64,000 nucleotides of DNA, from positions 65,951 to 129,950 of the forward strand of contig NW_004797959.1 of NCBI RefSeq assembly GCF_000002075.1, in the 5' to 3' direction. This stretch comes from Aplysia californica. Its lineage: Eukaryota. This document shows positions 469 through 875 of this stretch, in pieces; within the stretch, counting starts at the first letter, position 1, and each line of letters opens with the position of its first letter. Under the pieces are notes generated by a model, which saw only the letters and a program-made list of their open reading frames with translations, was not told where the DNA came from and did no database searches. The translations under genes and the position numbers were made by a program.

Positions 469-875
469 CCCCCGGGGCAGTGCTACTGACTGAAGTGTCT
501 TTAGGCCATTCCCAAAGGGGGGTACATTCACATCTCGAGTTCTTATGCACAGTAGAATTGTAATTGTAAATGGGTTGATTCTTCAATGTCATGCTCATAA
601 CTGTGCCTGAACTGCAACAGGGAACTGCTGCTTTTTCTTTCCTAATCCTTTCTGTCGCCATTTTCCTCTACTTCTTTTGTATGTTTGTCACACTCTTGTG
701 ACCCGCTATTTCCGGGATGCCTTGATAGTCGAAGCAGACTTTGTGCTGTTGAAGCTCAAGAGGTGAGCAGAGTAAGTCTGATTCCCTGTATGGACTTCTC
801 TGTTGACATCCACCCCTTGGCGCTCATATGACCTTATGCAGTTGCGAGCGCCGTAAAACCTCTACCAAAACAAAC
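469..875 (+). mobile_element. Short retroposon, family R1 (~400 bp, no tRNA head), full length with 16-bp TSD
   Basis: Perfect direct repeat AAAGGAGAAGCTTGTA at 453-468 and 876-891; 3' tail GGCGCTC-N20-GAGCGCC (819-852) then CAAA-rich end; homologous copies near 10906, 17165, 30730, 32345, 43420 and 52048. Confidence 0.85.

Follow-up and report, generated by a model that had tools for sequence, protein, structure and literature searches.

Short repeats scattered over a 64,000-nucleotide stretch of the Aplysia californica genome (contig NW_004797959.1; the whole stretch is called the window below) end in one and the same hairpin, which raises the question of how they came to share this tail and which element moved them. 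An earlier note on this DNA had distinguished three families, R1, R2 and R3, and proposed that all of them depend on a single LINE lineage. We consider it very probable that R1, R2 and the younger R3 copies carry the 41–52-bp 3′ end of an intact Nimb-like LINE of the I group, LINE-1, whose ORF2 protein likely bound the hairpin on their RNAs and used target-primed reverse transcription to insert them; that they amplified mainly with older LINE-1 subfamilies having a TTATGCA loop; that R3 swapped a first tail (B) for the present one (A); and that R2 was likely transcribed by Pol III, R1 and R3 not.

A common hairpin tail on three repeat families

Tail A reads GGCGCTC-ATATGACCTTATGCAGTTGC-GAGCGCC-GTAAAAC at window positions 819–859, and the stem-loop was found on all three families where the earlier note had placed it (819–852, 29441–29474 and 46466–46499). 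The R2 tail starts with CGCGCTC rather than GGCGCTC, so that the first stem pair is lost in that copy, and the R3 tail has three mismatches to tail A. Folding z-scores of single tails were modest (−0.6 to −3.0). A 17-mer of the tail loop matched the window 13 times at ≤3 mismatches, against 0.15 expected, and an ungapped scan counted 18 tail copies, which upholds the claimed multiplicity with a count other than the ~15 copies in 64 kb first given. The features are collected in Table 1.

Table 1. Tail-bearing repeats and related features in the window.
Feature	Positions	Strand	Remarks
Tail A stem-loop	819..852	+	7-bp outer and 4-bp inner stem, then GTAAAAC and A-rich repeat; folding z −2.34
R1 full-length copy, ~407 bp, tail A	469..875	+	C-run at 5′ end; without Pol III boxes
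R1 left TSD, 16 bp	453..468	+	right copy 876–891
Approximate R1 body segment homologous to R3 body	624..706	+	
R1 copy, tail A	10906..11281	-	3′ end extends into N
R1 copy, tail A interrupted	17164..17592	+	
R1 copy, tail A with small duplication	30727..31138	+	
R1 5′-truncated, tail A	43409..43666	-	
R1 5′-truncated, directly behind R3-B copy	52042..52387	-	
R3 head fused to R1 body fragment, no tail	32342..32721	-	
R2 full-length SINE, tail A, 12-bp TSD	29412..29943	-	tRNA-like head 29868–29936, CT-rich part, Nin-DC-like domain
R2 copy, tail A	22299..22771	-	
R2 copy, tail A	36502..36987	-	
R2 copy ending inside tail	62674..63026	-	
R3-A (younger subfamily, tail A), 11-bp TSD	46437..46621	-	
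R3-A, 9-bp TSD	44779..44963	-	
R3-B (older subfamily, tail B GCACTT...AAGTGC)	57016..57174	-	
R3-B copy	52405..52576	-	
R3-B copy	42790..42960	-	
R3 decayed, B-like tail	45243..45409	-	
R3-B in two pieces	5737..6272	-	head and half tail 6131–6272; B tail 5737–5780
Tail-B-only fragment	3244..3298	+	
Tail B adjoining N	11849..11903	-	
Decayed tail-only fragment	61963..62013	-	

The genome-wide tail search that the earlier note had suggested as a check returned 16,178 exact matches to a 26-mer of tail A in 927 Mb, and a 32-mer of tail B had 5,000 in the same 927 Mb, with none for the reversed control of either. Sorted by body, the first 30 tail-A loci comprised 16 R3, seven R1 and three R2 copies and four singletons. 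A count over 385,649 non-N bases, drawn from the window, from 20 further pieces of its contig and from 20 pieces of other contigs, detected 91 tails at E<0.05, namely 11 R1, 25 R2, six R3-A, 25 R3-B and 24 unassigned; its reversed control gave three matches, with E of 0.1–0.5. If this density of 91 per 386 kb is typical, the genome holds roughly 10^5 copies, and R3 probably numbers tens of thousands.

The target site duplications (TSDs) reported for one copy of each family are all present: 16 bp for the R1 copy at 819, 12 bp for the R2 copy at 29474 and 11 bp for the R3 copy at 46499. TSDs flanked 12 of 24 R1 copies (3 of 13 in a second set), 8 of 17 R2, 21 of 41 R3-A and 25 of 72 R3-B copies, compared with 0.1–1.4 in the shuffled-pairing controls for the SINE families (0.3 for R2). 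Many insertions (L231–L260; window 3244–3298) consist of the hairpin tail alone and start at the stem base; the pattern used selects for such inserts, so enrichment cannot be read from them. Tail-only B inserts had TSDs in 10 of 21 cases, against 0.34 in the shuffled control, indicating that reverse transcription begins at the tail. Tail-bearing elements also often adjoin or invade each other's A-rich ends (L002, L019, L030, L101, L143; window 52042–52576), a nesting that may reflect insertion preference.

An intact Nimb-like LINE ends in tail A

A motif search (479 matches) led to the LINE-1 family, which carries the tail ~150–200 bp past the ORF2 stop in 12 of the 15 loci examined. Among 20 longer stretches, the tail came shortly after ORF2 in 19 (one partial) and the common 5′ end was reached in ten, the element being ~5.95 kb long. 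The 1223-aa ORF2, intact in three of the 20 (L091, L093, L097), contains EN, RT and RNase H domains above the Pfam cut-offs and a C-terminal CCHC seen in the translation. Three CCHC-type motifs were read in the gag-like ORF1 of L091, for which Pfam returned no match. A separate gag-like ORF1 with CCHC knuckles is a feature of I-group and Nimb-clade LINEs. Eight of ten full-length copies are flanked by TSDs of 8–12 bp. The full-length, RT-encoding LINE with the same tail that the earlier note had set as its test thus exists, at ~6 kb and with the tail shortly after ORF2.

The note's suggestion that the loop resembles I/Nimb 3′ ends also fits: by eye, the published I/Nimb 3′ end S.constricta_0 (PMC11481361 supplement 4) has the same layout, ATGACC...GTGTCG...GTGCCGTAAAAC; the other Nimb 3′ end printed there, T.granosa_0, differs from these tails. 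Among the 120 homologues listed, none was a named reference element. We therefore call LINE-1 and its sister LINE-2 (see below) I-group and Nimb-like, a label that rests on domain order and tail rather than on a tree.

Homology between the SINEs and LINE-1 is confined to the last 41–52 bp, the R2 tail giving the 52-bp match, and tests of the UTRs stayed at z<2.5. The shared tail, the intact LINE, the similar TSD lengths and the tail-only inserts with TSDs together point to LINE-1 as the partner. By analogy with L2-clade LINEs, the LINE-1 ORF2 protein would bind the tail hairpin on SINE RNA in trans, nick the DNA, prime in the terminal repeat and leave a TSD of 8–16 bp. Older LINE-1 copies have the same TTATGCA loop as the SINEs (four copies, nearest-neighbour identity 87%), whereas a loop shorter by one base, TTAGCA, marks young LINE-1 (27 copies, 98.9%) and was in R1 or R3 context in 2 of 45 matches, a pattern that does not cover R2 context. 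From the match of the SINE loop to older LINE-1, SINE activity was likely at its height earlier than the most recent wave of LINE-1.

The top 30 loci of a search by RNase H family belonged to other LINEs, whose ends are different; the tails nearby were unrelated SINE insertions. One odd RT-motif locus (L261), considered as a third LINE family, proved to be a decayed LINE-1 with 76% DNA identity. Reads of two poly(A) runs, both of a single study, cover 30 of 30 bins of L093, mostly at 90–95% identity; those on its ORF2 lie mostly on one strand, but as the strand convention is not established, these reads do not count here as evidence. At the 5′ end of L093 (L203), LINE-1 is preceded by a ~390-bp LINE-2 5′ end, forming a chimeric head.

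Compensatory changes distinguish the tails of master lineages

The stem was compared in 22 hand-picked tails of four kinds: A, B, tail C of LINE-2 and tail D of a fourth family described below. The 7+4-bp structure was paired in 92% of cells, against 25–53% in slid control structures; the rows of this set are related, so the cells count lineages and not events. Three pairs had double changes: pair 4 takes a different form in each tail (A, G-C; B, A-U; C, G-U; D, U-G), pair 7 is either C-G or U-A, and pair 2 either G-C or C-G. Within families we found no covariation, with 1, 1, 1 and 3 double changes among 24, 44, 31 and 65 copies, and stems mutated faster than loops, as expected of dead copies with CpG. 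The two double compensatory changes claimed earlier are therefore present between R3-B and R3-A, but as one inherited package, and not as covariation across copies; the GCACTT...AAGTGC stem is found at 57039–57070, whereas the copy at 52426–52459 carries AAGTGTC. The compensatory changes set master lineages apart as fixed differences; they are not covariation among copies. As read from these sequences, they support selection on the hairpin in the master elements, from few events.

A probable tail exchange in R3

Tail B belongs to R3: the R3 body accompanied it at 29 of 30 tail-B loci, and 139 of 141 R3 copies sorted as A or B, two being unclear. R3-B and R3-A differ at seven positions in the 34-nt hairpin and at four in the ~120-nt body, and this clustering of differences in the tail argues for a swap. 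R1 and R3-A tails start with GGCGCTC, unlike those of LINE-1 and R2, which start with CGCGCTC, suggesting transfer from SINE to SINE. We infer that R3 first spread with tail B and acquired tail A later, through a template switch that probably took place between SINEs. Median divergence was 9.9% for R3-B (n=62), a figure in which subfamily structure may account for part of the apparent age, R3-B being mixed at body marker sites; it was 4.9% for R3-A (n=29), 6.6% for R1 and 8.1% for R2.

Alternatively, in line with the earlier note's picture of a single lineage, no swap took place, and one tail passed from state B to state A in stepwise co-evolution with a single LINE lineage. There is clear homology between tails A, B and C, the oldest LINE-1 copies share with R3-B the ending CTCTTACTAAA, and R3-B is indeed the older subfamily. 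We nevertheless find this course of events unlikely, given that old LINE-1 copies, ~75–84% identical to young ones, already have tail A, that none of the 141 R3 copies formed a group with an intermediate tail, and that the changes between R3-A and R3-B cluster as described. The swap remains our preferred reading, with a first partner of R3-B that would probably be a related LINE which has since decayed or escaped our searches: no LINE coding sequence was seen in the 30 examined of 39 tail-B matches outside R3 context, and no LINE ending in tail B in the 20 examined of 147 RT-motif matches.

The sister family LINE-2 bears on the identity of that partner. Its ORF2 is 58% identical to that of LINE-1, has intact copies and the EN-RT-RNase H order by Pfam, and the element ends in the related tail C followed by (CAAT)n. 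Tail B is about equally close to old LINE-2 ends and to LINE-1. R3-B, and perhaps other families, might thus have been moved by LINE-2, or by both LINEs if each tolerated the other's hairpin: two old LINE-2 copies (L262, L267) have the GGCACTT/AGTGCC stem of tail B and share its GGCACTT arm, LINE-2 still has, 85 nt upstream of the tail it ends in, the decayed remains of a tail resembling A, and the two LINEs have a common 5′ head. This possibility appears improbable to us, since R3-B ends in CTCTTACTAAAACTAAA, as old LINE-1 does, and not in (CAAT)n, the LINE-2 loop differs and L2 LINEs recognise the loop specifically (as described in PMC4176376), and alignments of the R3 body with the LINE-2 3′ UTR were not convincing (p 0.01–0.74 in ten R3 tests). 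As our searches turned up no LINE ending in tail B, and LINE-2 ends in yet another tail, the earlier proposal of one LINE lineage is supported for tail A only.

The tandem tails of the LINE-2 3′ UTR, with the decayed tail-A-like copy ~85 nt upstream of tail C (L183, L262, L267, L268, L271), are best kept in the old copy L267; LINE-2 seems to have replaced its own 3′ end. The first ~190 bases of LINE-1 and LINE-2 are 78% identical, and their hairpin head had 208 exact matches. This head (L091 oriented 3509–3600; L181–L188) starts with a 9-bp hairpin that encloses a G-run and has a C-run downstream of it; it folds strongly (z −5.9) and resembles in layout the head of LP-SINEs. One LINE-2 copy lies inside an R1 copy (L184), and is therefore younger than that R1 insertion. 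The fourth family (L030:2280-2490, L106:7550-7790), ~230 bp long, combines a tRNA head and a CORE-like body with tail D and (CATTT) repeats, and is possibly a sea-hare CORE SINE already described; no LINE partner of tail D was found.

Heads and bodies of the three families

The tRNA head that the earlier note had assigned to R2 is borne out as a tRNA-like head at 29868–29936 with A and B boxes and an Rfam tRNA score of 22.5 bits (E 0.033), under the gathering score; ARAGORN called no tRNA in it. By eye, R2 shares the words GAGGTCCCGTGTGCAA, GCACGTTAAAGATCCC and GGCAAAATT, in this order, with Nin-DC consensus sequences, and 16-mers with those of Lsa_Nin (Littorina) and Nla_Nin (Nucella) printed in PMC4758252 supplement 4. 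On these sequence features R2 is a tRNA-headed SINE of the known Nin-DC type, likely transcribed by Pol III from its tRNA head. Mollusc SINE papers name Nin-DC and CORE SINEs for the sea hare, and R2 may be the Nin-DC SINE already described there.

The claim of unrelated bodies holds for R2 against R1 and R3 (scores 98 versus a shuffle mean of 97, and 57 versus 55) and fails for R1 against R3. These two, ~400 bp and ~170 bp long (~185 bp for R3 in the earlier note), share an 87-column pyrimidine-rich segment with an alignment score of 101, while 500 shuffles gave a mean of 55 and a maximum of 80; blastn aligned R1 629–702 with R3 44932–44856 at 77%. Judged by this segment, R1 and R3 are related, and so not independent families.

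The R3 5′ end is sharp, 41 of 47 A and 72 of 92 B copies starting within 12 bases of one position, and in R1 a C-run directly follows the TSD. A search for Pol III boxes found no B box in either, no A box in R3 and no credible A box in R1; runs of T4–T6 are present in both. An Rfam search of R1 and R3 gave no credible match and supported no ribozyme or small-RNA head. Under a strict definition, which calls for a Pol III small-RNA head (tRNA, 5S, 7SL or snRNA), R1 and R3 are not SINEs; in all other respects (short, non-coding, flanked by TSDs, with a LINE-derived tail) they have the features of SINEs. They are probably not Pol III transcripts, and our best guess is that their RNA comes from an internal Pol II start.

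R1 and R3 could instead derive from LINEs by internal deletion, or be LP-SINEs with a head taken from a LINE 5′ end. The lack of a B box and of a credible A box together with the T runs would suit such an origin, the C-run at the R1 start resembles LINE heads, and LP-SINEs with Nimb heads are known in molluscs (PMC4758252 section 10). We hold this origin to be doubtful, though less so than the two alternatives above. The R1 and R3 heads did not match the 5′ UTRs of LINE-1 and LINE-2, the two LINEs compared (z at most 1.9), and no coding match to either LINE was seen in the 30 of 235 R1-head loci checked or in any of nine R3-head outliers. R1 and R3 were also rejected as bipartite derivatives of LINE-1 or LINE-2, with no UTR match and homology to the tail only. 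Among 30 LINE-head loci, one (L230) proved to be a LINE with an internal deletion, and not an R family.

In a bolder reading, which we rate as the least probable of those considered, R3 and R1 would together be a class of short retroposons that lack a Pol III head as well as a LINE-derived one. Their RNAs would owe exact 5′ ends to an internal promoter, or to a self-processing element, of an undescribed kind, and R3 would have outlived its first LINE partner by taking over the Nimb tail of a different SINE. The papers compared here give no description of R1 or R3, although repeat collections or other papers may already include them.

Other features of the window

Linker histone H1 genes at 6717–7364 (−), 20044–20706 (+) and 12019–12310 (−) lie in duplicated blocks of ~2 kb, of which two are complete and the third extends into N; histone stem-loops are present at 6622–6670 and 20753–20801. 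A tandem array with a unit of ~200 bp occupies 23919–25732. Open frames rich in Gln, Pro and His at 49826–50686 (−) and 60651–61460 (−) are likely host-gene exons. Further repeat families lack the shared tail (45497–45979 and 59784–60286; 48529–48663 and 52858–53270).

Comparison with known systems

The findings are new members of a published LINE–SINE system, and the general phenomenon is known. Mollusc V- and Meta-SINEs share Nimb-derived tails with I/Nimb LINEs (Martelossi et al. 2024, PMC11481361; Nishihara et al. 2016, PMC4824008): different bodies end there in one LINE tail of 35–61 bp, as they do here, and the layout of the Nimb tail matches. Several SINE families on one Nimb tail, tail exchange and LP-SINEs have been reported in molluscs, taking PMC4758252, PMC11481361, PMC4824008, PMC5786205, PMC5804259 and PMC11203168 jointly, and the argument from compensatory changes in SINE and LINE tails has been made before, for CR1 and L2 partners (PMC4824008). 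The SINEs described in PMC11481361 and PMC4824008 are tRNA-headed and from bivalves, whereas R1 and R3 lack a tRNA head. Deu and Nin SINEs are linked there to CR1-Zenon, unlike the Nin-like R2, which uses a Nimb tail; the Nin-DC consensus printed in PMC4758252 also differs from R2 in its tail and CT-rich linker.

R1 and R3 resemble LP-SINEs (Matetovici et al. 2016, PMC4758252), which are short and flanked by TSDs, lack a Pol III head and have a tail or body in common with tRNA SINEs. The ~70-bp LP-SINE head is a Nimb 5′ end, however, and the R1 and R3 heads match neither LINE 5′ end found here. Bipartite non-autonomous LINEs (RIME, Bov-A and Vingi derivatives; Kojima 2018, PMC5786205) are likewise short and ORF-less with a LINE 3′ tail, but they retain the LINE 5′ end, of which no part was found in R1 or R3, and are reported there only for the LINE groups RTE, Ingi, Vingi and R2. 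The heads of R1 and R3 are thus the only possibly new part, the rest being an instance of the published system.

In the stringent LINE–SINE pairs of the L2 clade, with ZfL2-1 and ZfL2-2 (Hayashi et al. 2014, PMC4176376), a 3′ stem-loop with short terminal repeats, alike in form to the tails described here, is the proposed ORF2 binding site. The role of the L2 stem-loop was shown by experiment, whereas the LINE here belongs to the I group and binding would follow by analogy; in the papers compared, I/Nimb tail recognition is likewise deduced from sequence. Three abundant repeats are now tied to a specific, still intact Nimb-like LINE, and the four natural hairpin variants with two intact ORF2s, 58% identical, form a test set for tail recognition by I/Nimb elements.
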